Assembly (NCBI GenBank): GCA_016204695.1
Contig: JACQKD010000001.1
Span: forward strand, 4,976 to 68,975
Direction of reading: 5' to 3'
DNA length: 64,000 bases
Source of the DNA: Candidatus Kaiserbacteria bacterium
Lineage (GTDB): Bacteria; Patescibacteriota; Minisyncoccia; Phycocordibacterales; UBA918
The translations under genes and the position numbers were made by a program. Shown here one piece after another: positions 41,472 to 51,546 of this stretch. Within the stretch, counting starts at the first letter, position 1. The number at the start of each line of letters is the position of its first letter. Under the pieces are notes generated by a model. It was not told the DNA's origin. It searched no databases and saw nothing but the letters and a program-made list of their open reading frames with translations.

Positions 41472-42380
41472 ATGGCAAATCGGCACCTTTCGAGAAGCAT
41501 TGTTCTGCAGTCGCTTTTCGAGTGGGATTTAAATAATATAGAAAAAAGCGATATCAAAAGCGTGCTCGAACGCAATATTGAAGAGTTCGCACCGAACAAG
41601 TCCGACCTACCGTTCATGGAGCGCCTTATCGACGGCGTGCTCGGCAAACAGAAAGAATTAAATCTTATCATTGAAAAGGCAGCGCCCGAGTGGCCGATCG
41701 ACCGCATCTCGCCGGTCGATCGCAACATTTTGCGTCTCGGTCTTTATGAGCTGTTGTTTGCCGACCGGAGCGAGGTCCCGGCCAAGGTCGCAATCAACGA
41801 AGCGATCGAGCTTGCCAAACAATTCGGCGGAGACAACTCCGGCAGATTCGTCAACGGCGTGCTCGGCGCAGTGTATAAAGAGATAGGCGAGCCCGGCAAG
41901 GATGAAAGCAGTAAGCGAAAGCGCAAGGATGTGCCGTATGAAGAGATGCCGGTCGAGCATCTTGCGGGTGCCGTGGTTTATGCATACGACGAGCAGGGCG
42001 AAATGTATTTGGCGCTCGTCCATGATATCTTCGGGCACTGGACACTCTCGAAAGGTAAAATTGAAGATGGCGAATCGATCGAGGATGGGGCGAAGCGCGA
42101 AATAAAAGAAGAGATAGGGCTCGATATGGAGATTGAGGCGAAGCTCGGCGAGAACGAGTATATTGCGTCCGATCCGGAAGTCGGAAAGAAACGCAAGCAT
42201 GTCACGTACTTTCTAGCGGAGTCGCCCTTTAAGGACGTGACGCTTGAAAAAAAAGGCGGACTCGACGACGCGAAGTGGTTCAGGGCTGCGGAAATTCTCG
42301 ATCTCAACTTCTACGAAGACATTCTGCCGATCGTGACCAAGGCCGTGACAATGCTTGTCGGCAAGAAACGTTCGAGTTAG
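41472..42380 (+). CDS. nusB: Fusion protein with an N-terminal transcription antitermination factor NusB domain and a C-terminal NUDIX hydrolase domain.
   Basis: NusB region [52 protein letters not shown] matches E. coli NusB ([30 protein letters not shown]). After a KRKRK linker comes the Nudix box [30 protein letters not shown] (GX5EX7REUXEEXGU). It is a single uninterrupted ORF. Confidence 0.8.
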   Translation: [302 protein letters not shown]

Positions 42381-43191: not shown

Positions 43192-45504
43192 ATGTATTTG
43201 CAGTCGCTTGAGGTAAGCGGGTTTAAGTCTTTTGCAAAAAAAGCGGAGCTTGAGTTTTCGACGCCAATTACGGGGATCGTGGGGCCCAACGGCTCCGGCA
43301 AGTCGAACGTCGTCGAGGCGTTTCGTTTCGTGCTCGGCGAACAGTCCATTAAGTCCATGCGCGGCAAGAAGGGAGAAGACCTCATTTGGGGCGGCGGAAC
43401 GAGCCTGGCGCGGGCAAACCGCGCGTCGGTGAAAATCGTGCTCAACAATGAAAGCCGCCTCTTCCCGATTGATTTCGACACTGTGACCGTCGAGCGCGTG
43501 GTCAACCGCGACGGCGAAAACGAATACTCCATCAATGGCTCGCGCACGCGCTTGCGTGACGTGCAGGAATTGCTTTCCGCCGCCAATATCGGCTCGACCG
43601 GCCACCACATCATTTCGCAAGGTGAAGCAGACCGCATCCTCTCGGCAAATCCGAAAGAACGCCGCGAGATGATCGAGGACGCGTTAGGTCTGAAGCTCTA
43701 TCAATACAAAAAAGCCGAGAGCGAGAAGAAACTCGAAAAGACGAAAGAAAATATCGCGCAGGTCACTTCGCTCCGCAAGGAGATCCAGCCGCATCTCCAC
43801 TTCCTTGAGCGGCAGGTGAAAAAGCTCGAAAAGTCTACGGAGCTTCGCGACCGGCTCACGGCGTTTTATAAAGCATACCTCCTGCGCGAGGAGCTCTATC
43901 TTGAACATCACACAAAGCGTTTGCGGGAAGAGGAGCGGGCGCCCGAGGCGGAGCTCGCGGTGCTGAAACACGAGCTCGCAAAAGCGAAACAGACGCTCGC
44001 CGAGGCCGAAAAGGATGAGAAGCGCGACGCGCTCGTGCGGCTTGAAGCACAGCTTTCGGTGCTTCGCCATAAACGGCAGGAGGTACTGCGTGAGAGCGGC
44101 CGCGTCGAGGGACAGCTTGGGTATCTTGAGCGGCAGGCGGCCGACCACGCGCGCAAAAAAGAACGCGAAACGCATCCGCCCGTGCCGTTTGCCGAGGTGA
44201 CGCGGGTGGTGGACCAGGTCGAGCAAGTCGCACAGAGCGCGCACGGGGAGGAAGACACGGCGGGATTGCGGCGCGTGATTGAGAGCATGGTGCGCACATT
44301 GCGGTCATTTCTCAATGAGACCGCGCGCATACACACGGACACTCCGGAGGAGACGCGCCTTGAGCGGGAGCTCGGCAAGCTCCGCGAAGAGAAGGAGCAC
44401 AATGAACGTACGCTTGCGGCGATTGACGGAGAAGAGCAGTCGCTTTCCCGTGAGTACGAGACGCTGAAACGGTCTATTGAAGCCGAGGCGAGCGAGAGCC
44501 GTGCCGCCGAGCGGGAAGTCTTTCGCATCATGGGGCGCGAGCGCGAGCTGATTGAGATAAAGAACCGCGTTACCCGCGAGACGCAGATGCTCGAACGCGA
44601 TCGGGAAGAATTCACCCGCGAGCTCAAAGAAGGCGCGATACTCGTCGGGTTTGAGATTACCCGCTACCGCGAGCACACCGTCGACCCGGACGGCATGTCG
44701 CTTACCGCGGTTGTTGTTGTCGATGAAGATCGTTCCGTACAGCTCGGCCGCCGCCGCGAGCTTGAGAAAATGAAGATTCGTCTCGAAGAGCTCGGCGCGA
44801 GCGGCGGCGGTGAAGTGATGAAAGAGTATGAGGAGGTCAAAGGCCGCGAAGCATTTCTTTCTCGCGAGATTGCCGACCTTGAACAATCAATCGAGAAGCT
44901 CGCGGAGCTGATTGTTGACTTGACCGAAAAATTAAACGAAGAATTTGTCGGCGGCATCGAGAAAATCAATACCGAGTTCAACCGCTTTTTCATGCTGATG
45001 TTCGGCGGCGGCTCGGCAAATCTTTTGCGCATCAAGCCAAAGGTGCGCAGGAAGAAGAGCGACCTTGAAGGACTACTTGCCGGCGATGGCGAGGGGGGCG
45101 ACCTGCCGGACGACGGAGGCGAAGATGAGGATTCGTCGGTTGACGGAGAAGAAGGTGTCGACATAGATGTGAAGCTCCCGAACAAGCGCGTGCGGGGCTT
45201 GGAAATGCTCTCCGGCGGCGAGCGGGCGCTGACCTCTATCGCGCTCATTTTTGCGATGAGTCAGGTCAATCCGCCGCTCTTTGTCATTCTTGACGAGACC
45301 GACGCCGCGCTCGACGAAGCCAACAGCCGGCGCTACGGCGACATGATCGAGTCGCTTGCGAAGAAGTCCCAGCTCATTTTGATAACTCACAATCGCGAAA
45401 CCATGTCCCGCGCCGGCGTCCTCTACGGCGTCACCATGGGCGGCGACGGCATTTCCAAACTCCTCTCCGTCAAACTCGAAGAAGCCGTCGCCGTGGCGAA
45501 GTGA
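43192..45504 (+). CDS. smc: SMC-family chromosome segregation ATPase (short, 770 aa).
   Basis: Walker A GPNGSGKSN. C-terminal signature LSGGERALTSIALIFAM and Walker B/D-loop ILDETDAALD. Long coiled-coil middle. The position after rnc is canonical. Extended -10 TGATACAAT lies 6 nt before the ATG. Confidence 0.85.
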   Translation: MYLQSLEVSGFKSFAKKAELEFSTPITGIVGPNGSGKSNVVEAFRFVLGEQSIKSMRGKKGEDLIWGGGTSLARANRASVKIVLNNESRLFPIDFDTVTVERVVNRDGENEYSINGSRTRLRDVQELLSAANIGSTGHHIISQGEADRILSANPKERREMIEDALGLKLYQYKKAESEKKLEKTKENIAQVTSLRKEIQPHLHFLERQVKKLEKSTELRDRLTAFYKAYLLREELYLEHHTKRLREEERAPEAELAVLKHELAKAKQTLAEAEKDEKRDALVRLEAQLSVLRHKRQEVLRESGRVEGQLGYLERQAADHARKKERETHPPVPFAEVTRVVDQVEQVAQSAHGEEDTAGLRRVIESMVRTLRSFLNETARIHTDTPEETRLERELGKLREEKEHNERTLAAIDGEEQSLSREYETLKRSIEAEASESRAAEREVFRIMGRERELIEIKNRVTRETQMLERDREEFTRELKEGAILVGFEITRYREHTVDPDGMSLTAVVVVDEDRSVQLGRRRELEKMKIRLEELGASGGGEVMKEYEEVKGREAFLSREIADLEQSIEKLAELIVDLTEKLNEEFVGGIEKINTEFNRFFMLMFGGGSANLLRIKPKVRRKKSDLEGLLAGDGEGGDLPDDGGEDEDSSVDGEEGVDIDVKLPNKRVRGLEMLSGGERALTSIALIFAMSQVNPPLFVILDETDAALDEANSRRYGDMIESLAKKSQLILITHNRETMSRAGVLYGVTMGGDGISKLLSVKLEEAVAVAK

Positions 45505-45567
45505 AATGGTATTGACCGGTGGTGTATACTGGAACGTACGGGGGATTACGAAGATAACATAAACCAC

Positions 45568-45744
45568 CATGACAAACTGCAAAAAATGCGGCAAGGAAAC
45601 CAAGGGATTCAAGTGCGATGTCGATACGTGCGGCATGGAAGCGGAACAGCATGATGCTAATCATGCATGCGGAGGCGAGCACTGCGTGCCGAAGTGTTCT
45701 GCGTGCAATGAAGCGGAAACAAAGTGCACCTGCTCCGCAGAATA
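45568..45744 (+). CDS. Candidate Cys-rich micro-protein (58 aa, 10 Cys, zinc-ribbon/metal-binding-like). Not in the supplied ORF track because it is shorter than 60 aa.
   Basis: MTNCKKCGKETKGFKCDVDTCGMEAEQHDANHACGGEHCVPKCSACNEAETKCTCSAE, with spacing CxxC...CxxxxC...CxxxHC...CxxC...CxC. Lies between the two copies of the smc 3' end. Confidence 0.3.
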
Positions 45745-45795
45745 GGTCGCGGCATCTCATCGCCGTGTCAATGTATCTGAAATACGACCGCGGGA

Positions 45796-45852
45796 GCGGT
45801 CGCATTTCTTTGTCCCTCTCCGTCAAACTCGAAGAAGTTGTTGCGGTGGCGA
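45796..45852 (+). repeat. Direct duplicate of the smc 3' end, located about 300 bp downstream of the real smc stop.
   Basis: 45447-45504 (ggcatttccaaactcctctccgtcaaactcgaagaagccgtcgccgtggcgaag tga) versus 45796-45852 (cgcatttctttgtccctctccgtcaaactcgaagaagttgttgcggtggcgaaa cag). The second copy lacks the stop codon. Confidence 0.8.
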
Positions 45853-45866
45853 AACAGGGCTCAAGT

Positions 45867-46424
45867 TCAATTGGTGGCACTCCGTTCTCCAGCTATCTCA
45901 ACAATCTTCTTGATATCCTGAATAAGTTTCATTTGTTCCGCAGTAATACCTTCAATGATGGAATTAAATTCGCTACCAGCAAGATAAACTGTTACCTCAG
46001 CTTCAAAGACTTTTAATTCTTTTGTTCCGTCAAACATGTGGTGTACGGCCTCTCTCCTGATGCCGTTGAATTTGTTAATATTCTTTATTAAGATTCGGTC
46101 GCATCTCAATCGAGCAAATATACCAACAAGTTGCCCCAATGTTTCTTCATCTTTCAAGATCAGTTTTTCATCTTCAAAAATATCTTCAACTCTAAGAAGC
46201 TTCAAGATCCTTCGTCGAGCAACATATCCATCAATCACAAATTTCATCAAATGCTCGATGAGTTGCGCATATACAAAGATAGTCTCTATCATAAAACCTG
46301 CTTGTATCAGGTTGTCCAATCTTTCGCGTGCCATGCTAGAACCCTTAACCAAAAGGGTTTGATGGGCAGCAATGCCAGAGATTTCATTATCAATCTGGAG
46401 ACCGATATGCTTTGATGTAGACAT
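45867..46424 (-). CDS. Hypothetical protein in an AT-rich islet (about 35-40% GC). Possible HEPN-like domain (R-x4-H motif).
   Basis: Strong compositional contrast with the flanks. IRREAVHHMFDG near the C-terminus fits the HEPN Rx4-6H signature. No other family recognised. Confidence 0.35.
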   Translation of the reverse strand: MSTSKHIGLQIDNEISGIAAHQTLLVKGSSMARERLDNLIQAGFMIETIFVYAQLIEHLMKFVIDGYVARRRILKLLRVEDIFEDEKLILKDEETLGQLVGIFARLRCDRILIKNINKFNGIRREAVHHMFDGTKELKVFEAEVTVYLAGSEFNSIIEGITAEQMKLIQDIKKIVEIAGERSATN

Positions 46425-46482
46425 GGCAAAAGGGTAACTATGTACAAAGATTAGCCTTATGTAACTCAGTACATAGTTCCCC

Positions 46483-48441
46483 TTACACCAACACAAAATC
46501 GAGTTGGCGGTCGTGGAGGTTGGCGGAGGCGAGACGGATGCGGATGGGGTCGCCGAGCTGGTATTTTTTGCCGCTTCGGTCGCCTTTGACCTGATAGTTT
46601 TTCGGGTCGTGCGTGAACGTGTCGCCTTTTATACTGATGAGCTTGACCATGCCTTCGGCCTTACTTTCTTTTTCTTCCACATACATGCCGTACTCGGAAA
46701 CGCCGGTGATGACGCCGTCGAATTCTCGGCCGACTTTGTCAGCCATGTACTCGACTTGTTTGAACTTGATGGATTCGCGCTCGGCGCTCACGGCCTTCAT
46801 CTCTTGTTCGGAAGACTGGATTGCGAGATGCTCGTAATGCGCCCGCTCGTCGCTTGCGATCGGCTGGCCGTCGAGATGCATGCGCAGGAGGCGATGTACC
46901 ATGAGGTCGGGATAGCGGCGGATGGGCGAAGTGAAGTGCGTATAAAACTTGAATGCGAGGCCGAAGTGCCCGATGTTTTTGGTCGTATAGACGGCCTTTG
47001 CCATCGAGCGGATGGTCGCGGTCTTGATGAGATTTTCCTCGGGCTTACCCTCGACTTCTTTGAGCAACTTGTTGATGTCGGTCGCTTCAACGATGCCGCC
47101 CTCCGAACGGAACTCATAGCCGAGCGCATGAAGGAAGATGGCGAGGTCCTCGATTTTCTCCGGTTTCGGCGCGTCGTGGACGCGGTAGACGAAGGCCGCG
47201 TCGCGGTTGCCGTTTTTGCGGAGATTGTAGATATGCTCGGCGACCTTCCTGTTCGCAAGCAACATGAAGTCTTCAATCATGAGCATGGTCTCGATGCGCT
47301 CTTTGACATATACGGCAATCGGCTTTTTGTTCTCGTCGAGCTCGAATTTGACTTCGGGCTGTTCGAAGGCGATGGCGCCGTCGATGTATCGGATTTTTCG
47401 CAGGATGCGTGAGACTTCCATGAGCGTCTTGAGCTCTGCGGCGAGCGGCCCGTTTCCGGTCTCGAATACTTCTTGTGCTTCCTGATAGGTGAAGCGCTTG
47501 TCGGAGTGGATGACGGTCTGTCCGTACCATTCGCTCACGACTGCACCTTGCGGGGTCATTTCAAACACGGCGGAGAAGGCGAGTCGGTCTTCATCGGGAC
47601 GAAGGGAGCAGAGGTCGTTTGAGAGCACTTCGGGAAGCATGGGAATGACGCGGTCGACGAGGTAAATGGATGTGCCGCGCTCCTGCGCCTGTGCGTCGAT
47701 GGGGTCGCCCTCGCGGACATAGTAGGAGACGTCGGCGATATGAATGCCGATTTCGTAGTTGCCGTTCGGCAATGCGCGAAACGAGAGTGCGTCGTCAAAG
47801 TCTTTGGCATCGGCGGGGTCGATGGTGCAGGTCGGCACACCGCGGAAGTCTTTTCGCTTGGGGTCGGCGAGCGCCTCGGCAAAAATCTTCGCCTGATTCT
47901 CGTGAAGCGCTTTCGCCGCTTGGTCGACTTCGGGAGGAAAGCCGGTCGCGAATCCGCCACTGCGGATGATGGCGCGCATTTCGGTCTCGTGCTCGCCCGC
48001 CTTGCCGAGCACTTCGATGATGTCGGCGGCGGGAGAGGCGGCGGGGTCGGTCCATCCTGCGTCGTCGAGTGCGGCCGCGACTTTCATTCCGAGATGTTCC
48101 GGTCCGGCGTTTGTGAGCAGGAACTGCCAGTGGAGGTGGCGGTTGTCCGGGCGGAGGCGATAGGTGACGCCCCGCATCTCAACTTCGCCGATGTATTCGC
48201 TCCGCGCCCGCTCGACGACGCGCACGACGCGGCCCGTTTGCCTTTCGCCCTTGTCTGTCTTCGTGAGACCCGGATCAAGCGTGATCTCGACTACGTCGCC
48301 GTCGAGCGCAAGCCCCACCGCTTCGGGAGGAATCATGACGTCCTCTTCGCGGTCGGGGATCTTCACAAAACCCGTGCCTTTGCTTCCGCGTATCGCGATC
48401 ACCCCTCTGTGCGCGTCCGGCGCGCCGATATTTTCATCCAT
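46483..48441 (-). CDS. rnr: Ribonuclease R (RNB-family 3'-5' exoribonuclease). The start may be 48489.
   Basis: N-terminal cold-shock-like OB folds. RNB motifs (CTIDPADAKDFDDALS, ...IGIHIADVSYYV..., TSIYLVDRVIPMLPE). C-terminal S1 domain. Confidence 0.9.
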   Translation of the reverse strand: MDENIGAPDAHRGVIAIRGSKGTGFVKIPDREEDVMIPPEAVGLALDGDVVEITLDPGLTKTDKGERQTGRVVRVVERARSEYIGEVEMRGVTYRLRPDNRHLHWQFLLTNAGPEHLGMKVAAALDDAGWTDPAASPAADIIEVLGKAGEHETEMRAIIRSGGFATGFPPEVDQAAKALHENQAKIFAEALADPKRKDFRGVPTCTIDPADAKDFDDALSFRALPNGNYEIGIHIADVSYYVREGDPIDAQAQERGTSIYLVDRVIPMLPEVLSNDLCSLRPDEDRLAFSAVFEMTPQGAVVSEWYGQTVIHSDKRFTYQEAQEVFETGNGPLAAELKTLMEVSRILRKIRYIDGAIAFEQPEVKFELDENKKPIAVYVKERIETMLMIEDFMLLANRKVAEHIYNLRKNGNRDAAFVYRVHDAPKPEKIEDLAIFLHALGYEFRSEGGIVEATDINKLLKEVEGKPEENLIKTATIRSMAKAVYTTKNIGHFGLAFKFYTHFTSPIRRYPDLMVHRLLRMHLDGQPIASDERAHYEHLAIQSSEQEMKAVSAERESIKFKQVEYMADKVGREFDGVITGVSEYGMYVEEKESKAEGMVKLISIKGDTFTHDPKNYQVKGDRSGKKYQLGDPIRIRLASANLHDRQLDFVLV

Positions 48442-48520
48442 AGCGTTAAATATGCTCCGAGTATAAATGAAAACGGGATTATTGACCATGGCGTTATTTT
48501 CTGGTACTGTCGAAGCCATT

Positions 48521-48982
48521 ATGTTGAAGATGCGATTACAGCGAGTCGGCCGCAAGCATAGCCCCGCCTACCGGGTGCTTATCGTCGATTCCCGTCAGGG
48601 CCCGAAGAGCGGCAAGTATATTGACCAAGTCGGCTCGTATGAACCGAAAGAGGGTCGGATCACGATCGACGGTGAGAAGGCGAAGGAGTGGATTGCCAAG
48701 GGTGTGCAGGTTTCCGGCACCGTCCATAACATGCTCATAGACCGGAAGATTATCGAAGGAAAGAAGATCAACGTACTTCCGAGAAAGTCGCCGATCAAGA
48801 AAGAGGATGGGGGTGCGCCGGTAGCGGAAGCTCCCGCCGTGCAAGCGCCGGACGCAACGTCCGCCGAAGCGCCTGAAACTTCTCCCGGAGAAGTTTCCGT
48901 TGAAGAAACTCCATCCGAATCCGCCAGCCGGCGGACTGCCGAAGAAACACCCGTAGAGCCGGTTGGTTCCGAGCCGTCATAA
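48521..48982 (+). CDS. rpsP: 30S ribosomal protein S16 with a C-terminal Pro/Ala/Glu-rich extension.
   Basis: MLKMRLQRVGRKHSPAYRVLIVDSRQGPKSGKYIDQVGSYEP is the S16 signature. Confidence 0.9.
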   Translation: MLKMRLQRVGRKHSPAYRVLIVDSRQGPKSGKYIDQVGSYEPKEGRITIDGEKAKEWIAKGVQVSGTVHNMLIDRKIIEGKKINVLPRKSPIKKEDGGAPVAEAPAVQAPDATSAEAPETSPGEVSVEETPSESASRRTAEETPVEPVGSEPS

Positions 48983-49108
48983 CGGCAATGTTCGCGCGTT
49001 TGTATTTGTGCGCTTTGGCATGTTGACGCACATGTCACCCTTTCGTATCATTAGTCTCGAACGAACGTTGCAATGTGCCGCTTAACAGAGTAGCTAGCAT
49101 AGAGATGT

Positions 49109-49453
49109 ATGGAACTTGATCGTCAATTTCTGGAATATGTGGTAAAGGCGCTTGTGGATCATCCCGATGACGTGAGGATTAACCGGACCGTAGATGAGAT
49201 GGGAGTACTGCTCACCATGGACGTGCATCCCGAAGATATGGGGAAGATTATCGGACGCTCGGGCAACACCGCAAAGGCGATCCGCACCCTCCTGCGCGTA
49301 GTCGGCATGAAGAACGATGCGCGGGTCAACCTCAAAATCAACGAGCCGGAAGGCGGCATGGGGGGCGGCCGCAACGGTGGCATGGGGAACGGAAACGGCT
49401 CCTCTTCCGCTCCGAAAACTCTCGACGAAGCCATCGACGATTTGAAGATGTAA
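49109..49453 (+). CDS. khpA: KH-domain RNA-binding protein (YlqC/KhpA, UPF0109 family).
   Basis: LVDHPDDVRINRTVDEMGVLLTMDVHPEDMGKIIGRSGNTAKAIRTLLRVVG is the KH GxxG core (GRSG). Its position after rpsP is canonical. Confidence 0.75.
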   Translation: MELDRQFLEYVVKALVDHPDDVRINRTVDEMGVLLTMDVHPEDMGKIIGRSGNTAKAIRTLLRVVGMKNDARVNLKINEPEGGMGGGRNGGMGNGNGSSSAPKTLDEAIDDLKM

Positions 49454-49454
49454 T

Positions 49455-49493
49455 TTTTTAAAAAACAAAAACCGCCGAGCCGCAAAGCGGCTT
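49455..49493 (+). terminator. Intrinsic terminator after the KH-protein gene.
   Basis: aaaaaccgccgagccgc aaa gcggcttggtggttttt tgtttg. Confidence 0.65.
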
Positions 49494-49540
49494 GGTGGTT
49501 TTTGTTTGACTTTGTCACGTTCCTCTCCAATAATTCCACT

Positions 49541-49969
49541 ATGACAAAAGGAATCGACTATACGGGGATTGCCGTCGTGTACATCTGTCACGACGGGAAG
49601 GGAAACATCCTCATGCACAAGCGGACGGAACGGTGCCGCGACGAGCATGGGTGTTGGGATTGCGGCGGAGGCGGTGTAAAGCTCGGCGAAAAAATCGAAG
49701 ACGCGTTGGTGCGGGAAGTGAAAGAAGAATATTTGGTGGAACCGCTTGAGTATGCATTGCTCGGGCATCGGGAGCTGTTTCGTGAACATGCGGGCCAGCC
49801 CACGCACTGGATCGCATTTGACTTCAAGGTACTCGTCGATCCGGAACGTGTGGGTATCGGCGAGCCGGACAAGGCGAGCGATATCGGCTGGTTTCCCTTC
49901 CGCAATTTACCCGATCCCTTGCACTCGGCCATACCGGATACGTTTGCCGATTATGATCATCATTTCTGA
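49541..49969 (+). CDS. NUDIX hydrolase (paralog 1).
   Basis: Nudix box GGGGVKLGEKIEDALVREVKEEYLVE. AATAAT -10 lies 6 nt before the ATG. Confidence 0.8.
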   Translation: MTKGIDYTGIAVVYICHDGKGNILMHKRTERCRDEHGCWDCGGGGVKLGEKIEDALVREVKEEYLVEPLEYALLGHRELFREHAGQPTHWIAFDFKVLVDPERVGIGEPDKASDIGWFPFRNLPDPLHSAIPDTFADYDHHF

Positions 49970-49985
49970 CAGCGTTTCATCTTGT

Positions 49986-50420
49986 ATGAATCATCTTGAG
50001 AAAGTGAAAGAGCTCGAATTGCCGTACGACCAGTTTGTGCTCGTCGGCGGCTCCATTCTCGACATTCACGGCATTCGAAAGAGTGATGATATGGACGTTG
50101 TGGTCAGCTCACAAGCATTTCAGACACTGAAAGGTCGGGGTTGGCCAGTTGACCCAGTTTTTAAAGAGAAATGGGGGCGGGAGCGGCTCGTGCAGGATGT
50201 GTTCGAAATATACACTGATCTCTATTTTCAAAAAATAGACTACTACCTTCCGTTTGAGGTCTTAAAGGAAATGTCCAAGCAGATGAAGGGCGTATACATT
50301 CAGTCACTCGGTGCGTTACTCTTAATAAAGTTCGATATTGGGCGCGAAAAGGATATGATAGATATCAAATTGATCGAGGAGTATCTGTTGGGGCAACGAA
50401 GGGCGGGTATGCAGAATTGA
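49986..50420 (+). CDS. Nucleotidyltransferase-fold protein (minimal NTase, Lnu/ANT-like GS...DxD motif).
   Basis: FVLVGGSILDIHGIRKSDDMDVVV has G-S followed by D-x-D at the typical pol-beta-superfamily spacing. 144 aa. Confidence 0.45.
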   Translation: MNHLEKVKELELPYDQFVLVGGSILDIHGIRKSDDMDVVVSSQAFQTLKGRGWPVDPVFKEKWGRERLVQDVFEIYTDLYFQKIDYYLPFEVLKEMSKQMKGVYIQSLGALLLIKFDIGREKDMIDIKLIEEYLLGQRRAGMQN

Positions 50421-50440
50421 GAATCCATGGTCGCATCGCT

Positions 50441-50866
50441 ATGAAAACAGGCATTGATTGTATCGGAGTGGTCGTCATCCACTACTGTAATGACGGGCGG
50501 GGGAATTTTGCTATGCTGAAACGCTCGTCAAAAAGCCGCGACGCCCACGGGTATTGGGATTTCGGAGGAGGTACTGTCGAGTTTGGCGAGCGGTTGGAGG
50601 ATGCGTTGGTGCGCGAAATGAAAGAAGAACTCGGAACGGAGCCCATTTCTTACGAGCAGATCGGCACCAAAGACATTATTGACGTCGATAACAAAAAGCA
50701 TTGGATAGGGGTATTTTATACGGCTCGCGTCAACAGGGAAAAAGTGTTCAATGCCGAGCCGGATTCTCACGATGAGTTGGGGTGGTTCACGCTTGATAAT
50801 CTGCCGAGTCCGACACGTCCCATTATGGCCGAACAACTGAAGGATTTTAGGAAATATTTAACATAA
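50441..50866 (+). CDS. NUDIX hydrolase (paralog 2).
   Basis: Nudix box GGGTVEFGERLEDALVREMKEELGTE. About 45% identical to paralog 1 (MTKGIDYTGIAVVYICHDGKGN versus MKTGIDCIGVVVIHYCNDGRGN). Confidence 0.8.
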   Translation: MKTGIDCIGVVVIHYCNDGRGNFAMLKRSSKSRDAHGYWDFGGGTVEFGERLEDALVREMKEELGTEPISYEQIGTKDIIDVDNKKHWIGVFYTARVNREKVFNAEPDSHDELGWFTLDNLPSPTRPIMAEQLKDFRKYLT

Positions 50867-50868
50867 TC

Positions 50869-51546
50869 ATGCATTTTCATGTGGTGACATTGTTTCCGGA
50901 GGTGTGCAAAGCGTATACGGACGCGTCTATTTTGGGCCGCGCGCAGAAGGGCAAGGGCAAAGCAAAAAAGATAACCGTCTCGTATTACAACCCCCGCGAC
51001 TATACGAAAGATAAACATCGCAAAGTGGACGACCGGCCGTACGGCGGAGGTCCGGGCATGGTGATGTATGCCGAGCCGATTTTGAAAGCGGTGGAAAAAG
51101 CTGTCGGCAAAAATAAGAGCACAAGGAAACCGAAGGTTCTCATCATGTCCCCGCGAGGAACATTGTTTGACCAACATTACGCGAAGAAACTTGCAAAATC
51201 ATACAAAGACGTCGTGCTCATCGCCGGGCATTACGAAGGTATCGACGCACGGGTGAAAAAGATACTGAAAGCGGAGGAGGTCTCGGTCGGTCCATATGTG
51301 CTCACCGGCGGCGAGCTTCCGGCGCTCTCAATCATTGACGCGGTCGCGCGCAATATTGCCGGCGTACTCGGCAAGGGTGAATCTCTCGAAGACACCCGAG
51401 CCGCAAGTGGCGAGATGTACACCCGCCCGGAAATGCTCACCTACAAAGGCAAAAAATACCGTATCCCAAAAATCCTCCTTACCGGCCACCACAAAAACAT
51501 CGAGCAATGGCGGCAAAAACGGTCGTTGTCCCAGGACGGCGGTTGA
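50869..51546 (+). CDS. trmD: tRNA (guanine37-N1)-methyltransferase.
   Basis: MHFHVVTLFPE, DDRPYGGGPGMVM, LIAGHYEGIDAR, VLTGGELPA are TrmD SPOUT motifs. Confidence 0.9.
   Translation: MHFHVVTLFPEVCKAYTDASILGRAQKGKGKAKKITVSYYNPRDYTKDKHRKVDDRPYGGGPGMVMYAEPILKAVEKAVGKNKSTRKPKVLIMSPRGTLFDQHYAKKLAKSYKDVVLIAGHYEGIDARVKKILKAEEVSVGPYVLTGGELPALSIIDAVARNIAGVLGKGESLEDTRAASGEMYTRPEMLTYKGKKYRIPKILLTGHHKNIEQWRQKRSLSQDGG

Follow-up and report, generated by a model that had tools for sequence, protein, structure and literature searches.

A displaced relic of the smc 3′ end marks an insertion of accessory DNA between smc and rnr in a Candidatus Kaiserbacteria bacterium

The spacer between the convergent genes smc and rnr harbors two small accessory genes, a Cys-rich micro-ORF for a zinc-finger-like mini-protein and an AT-rich gene for a newly recognized putative RNase of HEPN type, together with a second copy of the smc 3′ end. 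This copy is a genuine duplicate that has decayed into a relic and marks an insertion. The explanation that we favor, and which we consider reasonably probable, is a homology-anchored duplicative insertion of the micro-ORF, with a solo HEPN gene acquired recently in a separate event. The scar is an ordinary recombination scar and belongs to known biology, yet it recurs in relatives.

The smc 3′ end is duplicated within the smc-rnr spacer

The following features were located in the window, i.e. the whole stretch of 64,000 nucleotides that was analyzed.

43192-45504, plus strand: smc, a functional gene of 770 aa (Pfam SMC_N, E=2e-64)
45449-45500, plus strand: repeat copy 1, the 17 codons at the functional end of smc
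45501-45530, plus strand: promoter-like match GTGAAA-18-TATACT upstream of the micro-ORF (9/12 positions), a weak candidate
45569-45745, plus strand: micro-ORF HY416_00205 (NCBI), 58 codons, product with 10 Cys and 3 His
45785-45812, plus strand: terminator-like hairpin with a 7-bp stem (6 GC pairs), a GGGA loop and the tail CATTTCTTTG
45802-45853, plus strand: repeat copy 2, the displaced and decayed relic of the smc 3′ end
45867-46424, minus strand: AT-rich gene HY416_00210 (NCBI), 185 codons, directly downstream of rnr on the same strand
46430-46484, minus strand: hairpin with a 16-bp stem in the AT-rich tract, between the rnr stop and the start of the HEPN-like gene
46483-48441, minus strand: rnr (RNase R), convergent with smc (Pfam RNB, E=1e-110); start taken from a 652-aa gene call (L084), ORF open to 48555

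The smc product is a short SMC, the usual type for these bacteria, and its C-terminus, ISKLLSVKLEEAVAVAK followed by the stop, fits the motif SKLLSVK[LF][ED][ED]AxAVAK-stop of 80 relatives. Both smc and rnr have a GC content of 0.58 and a GC3 of 0.71-0.73, and the genes of the neighborhood (rnc, smc, rnr, rpsP, a KH-domain gene, NUDIX genes and trmD) are all housekeeping genes.

A previous reading made from the sequence only had proposed that the smc end reappears downstream, and this was borne out by Smith-Waterman alignment of the smc end with the spacer (score 58, z=17). The two copies comprise 52 nt each, are 81% identical and lie in direct orientation with an offset of 353 nt. They share an exact 23-nt core, CCTCTCCGTCAAACTCGAAGAAG, which occurs twice in the 64 kb, both times in the repeat copies, and in 0/100 shuffles. 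The homology reaches exactly to where the smc stop codon lies and has no clear upstream extension. Read in frame, copy 2 gives ISLSLSVKLEEVVAVAKQ; the relic, ISLSLSVKLEEVVAVAK, is followed by CAG at the position of the TGA stop of copy 1, and the copy indeed has no stop codon. The differences had been described as synonymous-type, which holds for four of the seven changed codons but not for the other three (K->L, L->S, A->V), which alter residues that are invariant in 80 relatives. Due to these substitutions and the lost stop, copy 2 is identified as decayed. Compared with the smc end of the closest relative, locus L096, copy 1 showed 94.6% identity over 56 nt and copy 2 showed 85% identity over 40 nt, a difference that is expected of the constrained copy under any model. 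A third partial copy at 45760-45793 was considered as well and was not significant (p=0.17).

The repeats bracket a segment of 301 bp with the 58-codon micro-ORF as its single credible gene, while the AT-rich gene lies outside. A 132-codon ORF (45618-46016) includes copy 2 in its reading frame and is probably spurious. It shares sequence with the micro-ORF in a different frame and covers the 3′ end of the HEPN-like gene in antisense; because both of these genes belong to conserved families, the longer ORF loses out.

As the sequence derives from a MAG, a metagenome assembly artefact was considered, in which two strains or species would have been joined chimerically via shared smc-end sequence. 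The junction of copy 1 and the micro-ORF indeed lies outside the contigs of two independent Logan assemblies, one of which ends in a Nextera adapter at 45526. However, these two assemblies, from two runs, reproduce the micro-ORF, copy 2, the AT-rich gene and rnr with 99.9-100% identity, the longest exact match between the copies (23 nt) is too short for usual final assembler k-mers, comparable relics are found in four unrelated assemblies, and smc keeps an intact reading frame through copy 1. An artefact is therefore hardly credible.

The spacer is variable in relatives and similar relics recur

The gene order rnc-smc-(gap)-rnr was kept in 64 of 80 genome loci and 59 of 80 metagenome loci, with gaps between -8 and 5282 bp (medians: 867 bp in genome loci, 531 bp in metagenome loci). 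Thus, smc and rnr form a conserved convergent pair in Paceibacteria with a very variable spacer. L096, whose flanking genes share 79% and 76.5% nucleotide identity with the window, has a stretch of 43 nt where the window has 988 nt. This is an essentially empty site, which indicates that the micro-ORF and the HEPN-like gene are both insertions.

Displaced relics similar to copy 2 were detected in four other genomes, two derived from the smc end and two from the rnr end, and all have the geometry seen in the window, with the old gene end in direct orientation downstream of the insert. At L101, a Glyoxalase_3 gene lies between the copies, and the smc-end relic comprises 39 nt (92% identical, z=19.6). 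The DNA between the copies has a GC content of 0.43 compared to 0.52 for the flanking DNA, and a perfect hairpin resembling the native terminator comes after copy 2. At L146, the smc-end relic comprises 27 nt (z=8.3). The rnr-end relics comprise 88 nt at L043 (z=29) and 45 nt at L145 (z=10). Together with the window, the five relics range from 27 to 88 nt and differ in their boundaries. Within the window itself, a duplication of the rnr end was not found (alignment z=2).

A local event could also account for a repeated gene end. In this case the smc end and the DNA downstream would have been duplicated in tandem by replication slippage, template switching or unequal crossing-over, the second copy would have mostly decayed or been deleted, and the micro-ORF would have been resident already or a later insert. 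An event of this type is suggested by L146, where the smc-end duplicate is near-tandem, with a short AT-rich filler and no cargo gene between the copies, and the excess of third-position differences between the copies in the window fits one constrained and one free copy. Nevertheless, the site is empty in the closest relative, the DNA between the copies of L101 is compositionally foreign, and the micro-ORF family usually occurs in other gene neighborhoods, so that import of the micro-ORF is needed in any case. We therefore regard a local event as unlikely, though it keeps a real if small share of our belief.

The sequence-only reading had offered two origins for the scar, namely an integrative element that rebuilds the end of its target gene, or illegitimate recombination importing foreign DNA. 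For the former, the smc 3′ end would serve as attachment site of a site-specific element or cassette system, with the copies as attL and attR. Direct repeats of a gene end flank an inserted gene both here and in L101, with an exact or near-exact core common to both copies, and the smc end is affected in three independent genomes. This resembles genomic islands that duplicate their att site at the 3′ end of tRNA, tmRNA and some protein-coding genes and leave the target gene intact. In contrast to such islands, the insert bracketed here is 301 bp long and has no integrase or transposase in or near it; none was found within several kb of the repeats in the gene list, by Pfam or among the neighbor genes. 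There is no tRNA or tmRNA near the insertion site, an Rfam scan of 44.5-47.5 kb gave nothing relevant (a single chance match to a snoRNA, E=0.48), and neither the DNA nor the proteins matched phage or plasmid collections. Moreover, the repeats are only 81% identical and the AT-rich gene is outside of them. The smc-end lengths (52, 39 and about 27-40 nt) have differing left boundaries and thus no common crossover site, and comparable relics in L043 and L145 stem from the opposite gene end, that of rnr. In the five examples, a recombinase gene accompanying the cassettes and a crossover point common to the junctions both appear to be lacking. The varied lengths and boundaries together with the rnr-end cases argue against one site-specific att site, and we consider an integrative element improbable. 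Illegitimate recombination, the second of the two suggestions, comes close to the explanation we favor.

Proposed history of the spacer

The short smc-rnr spacer of Paceibacteria is, in the reading that we favor, an insertion hotspot. We infer two separate insertions and their order, by which an ancestral spacer of probably a few tens of nt would have grown to 978 nt. That the two accessory genes look like separate events follows from the repeats, which bracket the micro-ORF segment only and leave the HEPN-like gene outside.

The first insertion would be a homology-facilitated illegitimate recombination (HFIR). The incoming segment would have brought along a functional smc 3′ end together with the micro-ORF and the terminator hairpin of the latter. 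Homology inside smc would have anchored one side of the segment, and the illegitimate joint on the other side would lie about 55 nt ahead of the resident smc stop. The resident smc end would thereby have been displaced downstream, would have lost its stop codon and the selective constraint on it, and would have decayed into copy 2. The mutated 5′ part of copy 2 forms the U-rich tail of the terminator-like hairpin downstream of the micro-ORF and may now act as the U-tract of its terminator. HFIR and 3′-end displacement are documented (PMC3240628, PMC5361080), as is natural competence in Patescibacteria (PMC10633639), and the type of relic left by these processes, in direct orientation downstream and with homology ending at the gene end, is what was found here. 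A micro-ORF homologue was located within about 5-6 kb of smc in 0 of 160 related loci, and no relative examined carried a Cys-rich micro-ORF in the smc-rnr gap. As the family occurs in other contexts elsewhere, the micro-ORF appears to be a newcomer at this site. The donor arrangement, with the micro-ORF next to smc, was likewise absent from the 160 loci, so that HFIR presupposes an unsampled donor. Integration of a circular fragment by a single crossover and local duplication followed by insertion are alternatives to HFIR that are not separable from it on present data.

The second insertion would be a recent one, of a low-GC cassette of about 620 bp from a donor of lower GC content, spanning from the end of the relic to the rnr stop and comprising the solo HEPN-fold gene and its 5′ hairpin. 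No repeats flank this cassette.

The displacement of C-termini by HFIR at rhs, CDI and T6SS effector loci and in natural transformation (PMC5361080, PMC3240628) is the closest parallel to the first insertion. There, too, a conserved gene body serves as anchor, new DNA follows the new gene end, the old 3′ end remains as a direct-repeat relic downstream, and the process recurs at one locus in different lineages. In contrast to these loci, the displaced gene is a housekeeping gene (smc here, smc or rnr in relatives) that received an equivalent end where those loci gain a new toxin tip, a small unrelated gene forms the cargo, the relics are very short (27-88 nt), and the donor was not found in the loci searched.

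Since the spacer is tiny and the flanking genes are probably needed intact, insertions would persist only if both gene ends are preserved, which would explain the recurrence of the scar. The scar is a small, clean trace of the uptake of a single accessory gene between packed essential genes, neither of which was damaged, in the streamlined genomes of CPR/Patescibacteria. Five independent gene-end relics at one locus suggest that these bacteria, which are naturally competent, regularly gain genes by one-sided homology-anchored recombination. A bolder proposal, to which we give little credence, is that the smc-rnr junction is a dedicated and recurrent capture site of Paceibacteria for cassettes with single accessory genes, operating by an undescribed, homology- or site-guided mechanism with a systematic duplication of 27-88 nt from the end of the flanking gene. 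If true, the site would be functionally analogous to an integron platform, but with no known integrase, and its mobile cargo would include the families of the solo HEPN protein and of the Cys-rich mini-protein.

The micro-ORF belongs to a family of Cys-rich mini-proteins

The two accessory genes define two uncharacterized protein families that are both missed by current domain databases; both are tractable for biochemistry, and neither overturns current understanding. The ORF of 58 codons and 10 cysteines between the copies had been described as unannotated. It is present and real, carries an NCBI entry (HY416_00205) and is a member of a conserved family of mini-proteins of about 55 aa with at least 79 homologues of 45-102 aa, all from Patescibacteria. 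In this family 9-10 Cys and 3 His, about 12 ligands, are conserved: K15, C16, C21, H32, C39, C43, C53 and C55 are invariant, and C4, C7, H28, C34, H38 and C46 are nearly so. Elsewhere the family is found in varied contexts, notably in thiol-redox clusters with DUF3179, redoxin, Pyr_redox_2 and DsbD.

The AF2 model of the product (pLDDT 91.8) has short beta-hairpins, and Foldseek returned weak matches to zinc-ribbon-type modules, every one with E>=1.5. The product had no match at E<=1 in Pfam, NCBIfam, PADLOC or PHROGs, and no profile match placed it in a metallothionein or zinc-ribbon family. In size, Cys and His content and CxxC-like pairs it resembles small multi-zinc proteins, zinc ribbons and bacterial metallothioneins, from which it differs in its distinctive ligand spacing, the lacking Pfam family and its apparent restriction to Patescibacteria. 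The conserved Cys/His pairs suggest metal binding without placing the micro-ORF in a named family. The product probably binds several zinc or other metal ions, most likely about three, and is most likely tied to thiol-redox functions.

The -10 element TATACT, with which the micro-ORF had been credited, is present as part of the promoter-like match GTGAAA-18-TATACT, but such matches were not enriched (2 found, 2.0 expected from shuffles).

The AT-rich gene encodes a putative HEPN-like protein

With a GC content of 0.385 and a GC3 of 0.371, the convergent gene behind copy 2 is as sharply AT-rich as had been claimed. No 558-nt windows in the 64 kb are lower in GC than those of its region (minimum 0.378; mean 0.555, sd 0.038), and the gene is compositionally foreign. 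A word-indexed homology search had recovered the gene itself alone, suggesting an ORFan; this was overturned by a full HMMER search, which found 55 relatives. Homologues were lower in GC than their flanks in four of four contexts and had no conserved neighbor.

By definition, HEPN domains have a four-helix core with an insert separating helices 2 and 3. [quoted passage not shown] The R-x4-H motif (IRREAVHH) that had been pointed out before is R123-x4-H128, and it is invariant in 33 aligned relatives, as are Q54, E57 and G97; N120 and F131 are nearly so, and the residue following the motif R is mostly K, R or N. E57 is followed by K61 in the consensus QxxEHxxK, an E-x3-K. The predicted AF2 structure is all-helical (pLDDT 94.1), with helices at 5-41, 45-76, 110-132 and 137-184 and a loop and short helix inserted at 77-109. 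It places E57 and K61 inside helix 45-76 and the R-x4-H at the end of helix 110-132, just ahead of the loop at 133-136. The best natural-protein matches in Foldseek were HEPN proteins, namely 2hsb, HepT (7bxo_F, 6m6u_G) and Csm6 (6tug), with E-values >=0.07, and two family members matched the C-terminal (HEPN) part of three CARF-HEPN profiles with residues 37-144. Single family members reached E-values of about 1e-3 in PADLOC, and all HEPN database matches were below significance. The profile search that had been suggested thus yielded relatives and partial CARF-HEPN matches, but no Pfam family: none of 33 members had a Pfam match, and scans of the protein itself against PADLOC, NCBIfam and PHROGs gave no match.

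Motif conservation and the predicted fold thus support the earlier suggestion that the product bears the hallmarks of a HEPN domain and fits the HEPN layout. It appears to be a solo member of an unnamed family of about 180 aa with 55 representatives, and most likely a putative metal-independent RNase of toxin or defense type that acts as a dimer. It shares the helical core, the helix 2/3 insert and both conserved motifs with known HEPN RNases (HepT of HEPN/MNT, AF_0298 = 2hsb, Csm6/Csx1 domains; PMC3710099), and the gene is likewise mobile, compositionally foreign and sporadically distributed. It differs from them in its long N- and C-terminal helices, in the lack of significant HEPN matches in Pfam, NCBIfam and PADLOC, and in having no adjacent MNT, CARF or other partner. 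A HEPN/MNT (HepT-MntA) toxin-antitoxin module was rejected, as the adjacent minimal nucleotidyltransferase antitoxin gene is missing: such a gene was found neither beside the AT-rich gene, whose neighbors are rnr and the convergent micro-ORF, nor beside homologues in L086-L089. No other antitoxin or regulator partner of the supposed toxin was visible.

The hairpin with the 16-bp stem upstream of the HEPN-like gene has an RNA fold of -30.1 kcal/mol (z=-4.0). It is absent from L096 and is not common to the upstream regions of four HEPN-like homologues. It may terminate rnr transcripts or, as a leader structure, hold down expression of the HEPN-like gene.

Organization of the smc-rnr spacer

In the source Candidatus Kaiserbacteria MAG (locus tags HY416_), the convergent genes smc and rnr are separated by a spacer of 978 bp, in which the end of smc occurs a second time. 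The window harbors the following features in this region:

43192-45504, + strand: smc, 770 aa, Pfam SMC_N E=2e-64
45569-45745, + strand: micro-ORF, 58 codons
45785-45812: GC-rich hairpin with U-rich tail, 3' of the micro-ORF
45802-45853: second copy of the smc end (last 52 nt), 3' of the 45785-45812 hairpin
45867-46424, - strand: AT-rich gene, 185 codons, its stop codon 13 nt past the second copy
46430-46484, - strand: hairpin with a 16-bp stem, abutting the rnr stop codon
46483-48441, - strand: rnr, RNB E=1e-110

The direct repeat of the smc end comprises 52 nt with 81% identity at a spacing of 353 nt. Its exact core of 23 nt does not occur elsewhere in the window and was obtained in 0 of 100 shuffles. 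Local alignment of the smc end with the spacer gave a score of 58 (z=17); the repeat is real, as are the micro-ORF with its 10 cysteines and the AT-rich gene, which had all been reported by a reading of the sequence alone. Homology ends at the smc stop codon, and nothing convincing extended it upstream. A suspected third partial copy of the smc end was not significant (p=0.17).

In 80 of 80 relatives (species-representative genomes) the SMC C-terminus is SKLLSVK[LF][ED][ED]AxAVAK followed by the stop codon, a pattern to which the first copy (45449-45500) conforms. The second copy, translated as SLSLSVKLEEVVAVAKQ, carries substitutions at invariant positions (K to L, L to S and A to V) as well as CAG where the stop codon is expected, and is therefore a decaying fragment, referred to as relic below. 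The sequence-only reading had described its changes as synonymous-type, which applies to four codons and not to the substitutions listed. At the 5' end of the relic, a clustered change from CCAAAC to CTTTGT has given the hairpin behind the micro-ORF its U-rich tail; part of the relic may thus serve as a co-opted terminator tail.

The C-terminal 17 residues of SMC are near-invariant over 160 loci. Canonical bacterial SMC proteins comprise about 1,150-1,200 aa; the length here is just 750-770 aa (window 43192-45504 (+); L101:3411-5672, a contig of a relative), which would imply a strongly reduced coiled coil and hinge.

Positions 45526-47636 of the window were matched at 100% identity by one Logan assembly and positions 45716-51425 at 99.9% by a second assembly from a different run. 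Together they span the micro-ORF, the relic, the AT-rich gene and rnr, while the junction between the first copy and the micro-ORF lies outside both. On the Logan contig L085, a 19 nt Nextera adapter (CTGTCTCTTATACACATCT, L085:2112-2130) starts exactly where the match to the window ends; this contig end is therefore technical and no genomic breakpoint. A 132-codon ORF (window 45618-46016 (+)), called as a gene on Logan contigs (L085; truncated to 99 aa on L084), runs through the relic, overlaps the micro-ORF in a different frame and lies opposite the 3' end of the AT-rich gene in antisense direction; it is probably spurious.

Gene-end relics recur at the smc-rnr junction

Among the loci of relatives, 64 of 80 from genomes and 59 of 80 from metagenomes keep the order rnc-smc-(gap)-rnr with a convergent rnr; in the remainder, many contigs stop short of rnr. 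The gap between smc and rnr measures anything between -8 and 5282 bp (median 867 bp in genomes, 531 bp in metagenomes) and is a variable hotspot between conserved genes. In the window, a 302-aa ORF upstream of rnc (41472-42380 (+)) resembles by eye a fusion of a NusB-like N-terminal half with a NUDIX hydrolase half; it contains GHWTLSKGKIEDGESIEDGAKREIKEEIGL, which is similar to a Nudix box.

The closest relative found, L096, shows protein identities of 81% for SMC-C and 80% for RNase R (nucleotide identities of 79% for smc and 76.5% for rnr), and has 43 nt opposite 988 nt of the window (45501-46488). Against this compact arrangement, the micro-ORF segment and the AT-rich gene both count as insertions, in agreement with the import of DNA that the sequence-only reading had suspected. 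No homologue of either was detected within ~5-6 kb of smc at any of the 160 loci.

When every locus was scored alike for displaced gene ends, four more were found. On L101 (5635-6583), the final 39 nt of smc, stop codon included, are found again 910 nt downstream (92% identity, z=19.6). Between the two copies lies a 294-aa Glyoxalase_3 gene (GC 0.43 versus 0.52 in smc), and a perfect hairpin behind the second copy looks like the native terminator. On L146 (5636-5740), the smc end is duplicated near-tandem over 27 nt (z=8.3). Two further relics derive from the rnr end: 88 nt on L043 (6889-7482), which still encode KKYALGDTARVKLTATDLAARTADFELVD and the stop ~500 nt off the real end (z=29), and 45 nt including the stop codon on L145 (5945-6798; z=10). 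Without exception, the relic is in direct orientation and the insert separates it from the gene body; its length and boundaries vary. This suggests that duplicative insertion is recurrent at this convergent junction, the additional cases being four other Paceibacteria contigs.

The general class of event proposed from the sequence was right, but a site-specific integrative element, one of the two models offered, does not fit. Neither the 301 bp between the repeats nor the housekeeping neighbours encode a recombinase, the repeats are just 81% identical, and the boundaries vary, with the smc end or the rnr end being hit depending on the genome. The geometry of the relics is what homology-facilitated illegitimate recombination (HFIR) produces. 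A conserved gene would anchor one side of the incoming DNA and the opposite end would be joined illegitimately; if this joint comes to lie within the end of the resident gene, that end would stay behind as a relic, as described for HFIR (PMC3240628). Displaced 3' ends, the same outcome as the smc scar, are known from T6SS and rhs loci (PMC5361080), and members of the Patescibacteria have been shown to be naturally competent (PMC10633639). An identical scar would be left by a single crossover with a circular fragment or by local duplication followed by insertion, the latter being hinted at by L146. A donor in which the micro-ORF adjoins smc was not found among the 160 loci.

The ancestral spacer was probably tiny, since many relatives have between 0 and some tens of nt there, and the flanking genes are highly conserved, so that the survivors would be insertions sparing both gene ends; short relics should also withstand recombinational deletion better than long ones. 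Both effects together would explain the bias towards 27-88 nt.

The repeats go with the micro-ORF insertion and not with the AT-rich gene, which lies outside them and has no repeats of its own. The AT-rich gene is best regarded as a second acquisition and, from its GC3, a more recent one. The locus combines known kinds of biology, namely a core-gene hotspot with a 3'-end displacement scar and two new protein families, one of small Cys-rich proteins and the other probably of HEPN type. What is worth keeping are the recurrent gene-end relics at the smc-rnr junction and the two uncatalogued families.

The micro-ORF belongs to a family of small Cys-rich proteins

The micro-ORF had been considered unannotated and is listed by NCBI as HY416_00205. 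A profile search retrieved 79 proteins of 45-102 aa, with Patescibacteria, Parcubacteria, Paceibacterota or Giovannonibacteria as named sources. In a 44-member alignment, K15, C16, C21, H32, C39, C43, C53 and C55 are invariant and C4, C7, H28, C34, H38 and C46 near-invariant, which gives ~12 potential ligands, as many as three tetrahedral metal sites would require. A confident AF2 model (pLDDT 91.8) consists of short beta-hairpins, and Foldseek returned zinc-ribbon-type modules alone (TFIIE, MetRS, MCM, Pol alpha, rubrerythrin, thioredoxin-2), none of them significant.

On several contigs (L081, L092/L093, L094) homologues lie beside DUF3179, AhpC/redoxin, Pyr_redox_2, FMN reductase, DoxX and DsbD_TM genes. 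Clusters of the mini-protein with redox neighbour genes, all from Patescibacteria, are:

L081:2881-5911
L092:1-6734
L094:2271-7993

A further homologue (L083) adjoins a cupredoxin-like protein, recognized by eye, and an NAD_binding_1 reductase, and one (L090) is found in an unrelated setting. The DUF3179/redoxin/DsbD_TM cluster with the mini-protein could represent an uncharacterised module for thiol-redox functions or metal handling, and the micro-ORF product is most likely a small metal-binding protein tied to thiol-redox functions.

The AT-rich gene encodes a HEPN-like protein

The AT-rich tract noticed from the sequence was confirmed, with a GC content of 0.385 and a GC3 of 0.371 for the gene versus 0.58 and 0.71-0.73 for smc/rnr. 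Of all 558-nt stretches in the window it has the lowest GC (minimum 0.378, mean 0.555, sd 0.038). A word-indexed homology search returned the self-match alone; by exhaustive HMMER search 55 relatives of ~180 aa were obtained, 28 of them at E<=1e-10. Q54, E57, G97, R123 and H128 are invariant in a 33-sequence alignment, and the motif consensus is FNxxRxExxHHxFDG. The AF2 model (pLDDT 94.1) is all-helical (5-41, 45-76, 96-105, 110-132, 137-149, 151-184).

Compared with the published HEPN definition (PMC3710099), the family shares R-x4-H where helix 3 ends, directly ahead of the loop leading into helix 4, a mostly polar residue following the R, E-x3-K in helix 2 and the characteristic helix 2/3 insert. 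The proposed HEPN likeness is supported by the invariant R-x4-H and the layout. Pfam HEPN families matched none of the 33 members, and a PDB profile search with the family gave no HEPN match. The best natural-protein matches in Foldseek were HEPN proteins, AF_0298 (2hsb, prob 0.97, TMt 0.57), HepT and Csm6, with non-significant E-values. In three CARF-HEPN profiles, the HEPN portion at the C-terminus was matched by two members over residues 37-144 (E=0.001-0.008), and NCBIfam cas_csm6 matched one family member (E=0.018). Database support for the assignment is consistent, though weak, and it is quite probable that the family is a new HEPN family, absent so far from domain libraries.

The homologues stand alone among unrelated housekeeping genes, with no conserved partner or MNT neighbour in the contexts examined and with a GC content below that of their flanks in 4 of 4 cases. 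One of them, P0009 (region L087:6001-8640), is located between housekeeping operons and has an IS1595-family transposase gene ~1.2 kb away, which fits a family residing in variable, mobile regions. The solo, low-GC occurrence of the homologues is consistent with a mobile gene of the toxin or defence type, and the product is a putative RNase.

The gene is located 3' of rnr on the same strand, and a strong hairpin (46430-46484 (-)) ends 6 nt before its ATG. This hairpin is AT-rich (-30 kcal/mol, z=-4), missing in the closest relative and not common to the HEPN-like homologues. Speculatively, it may terminate rnr transcription and hold expression of the HEPN-like gene low.
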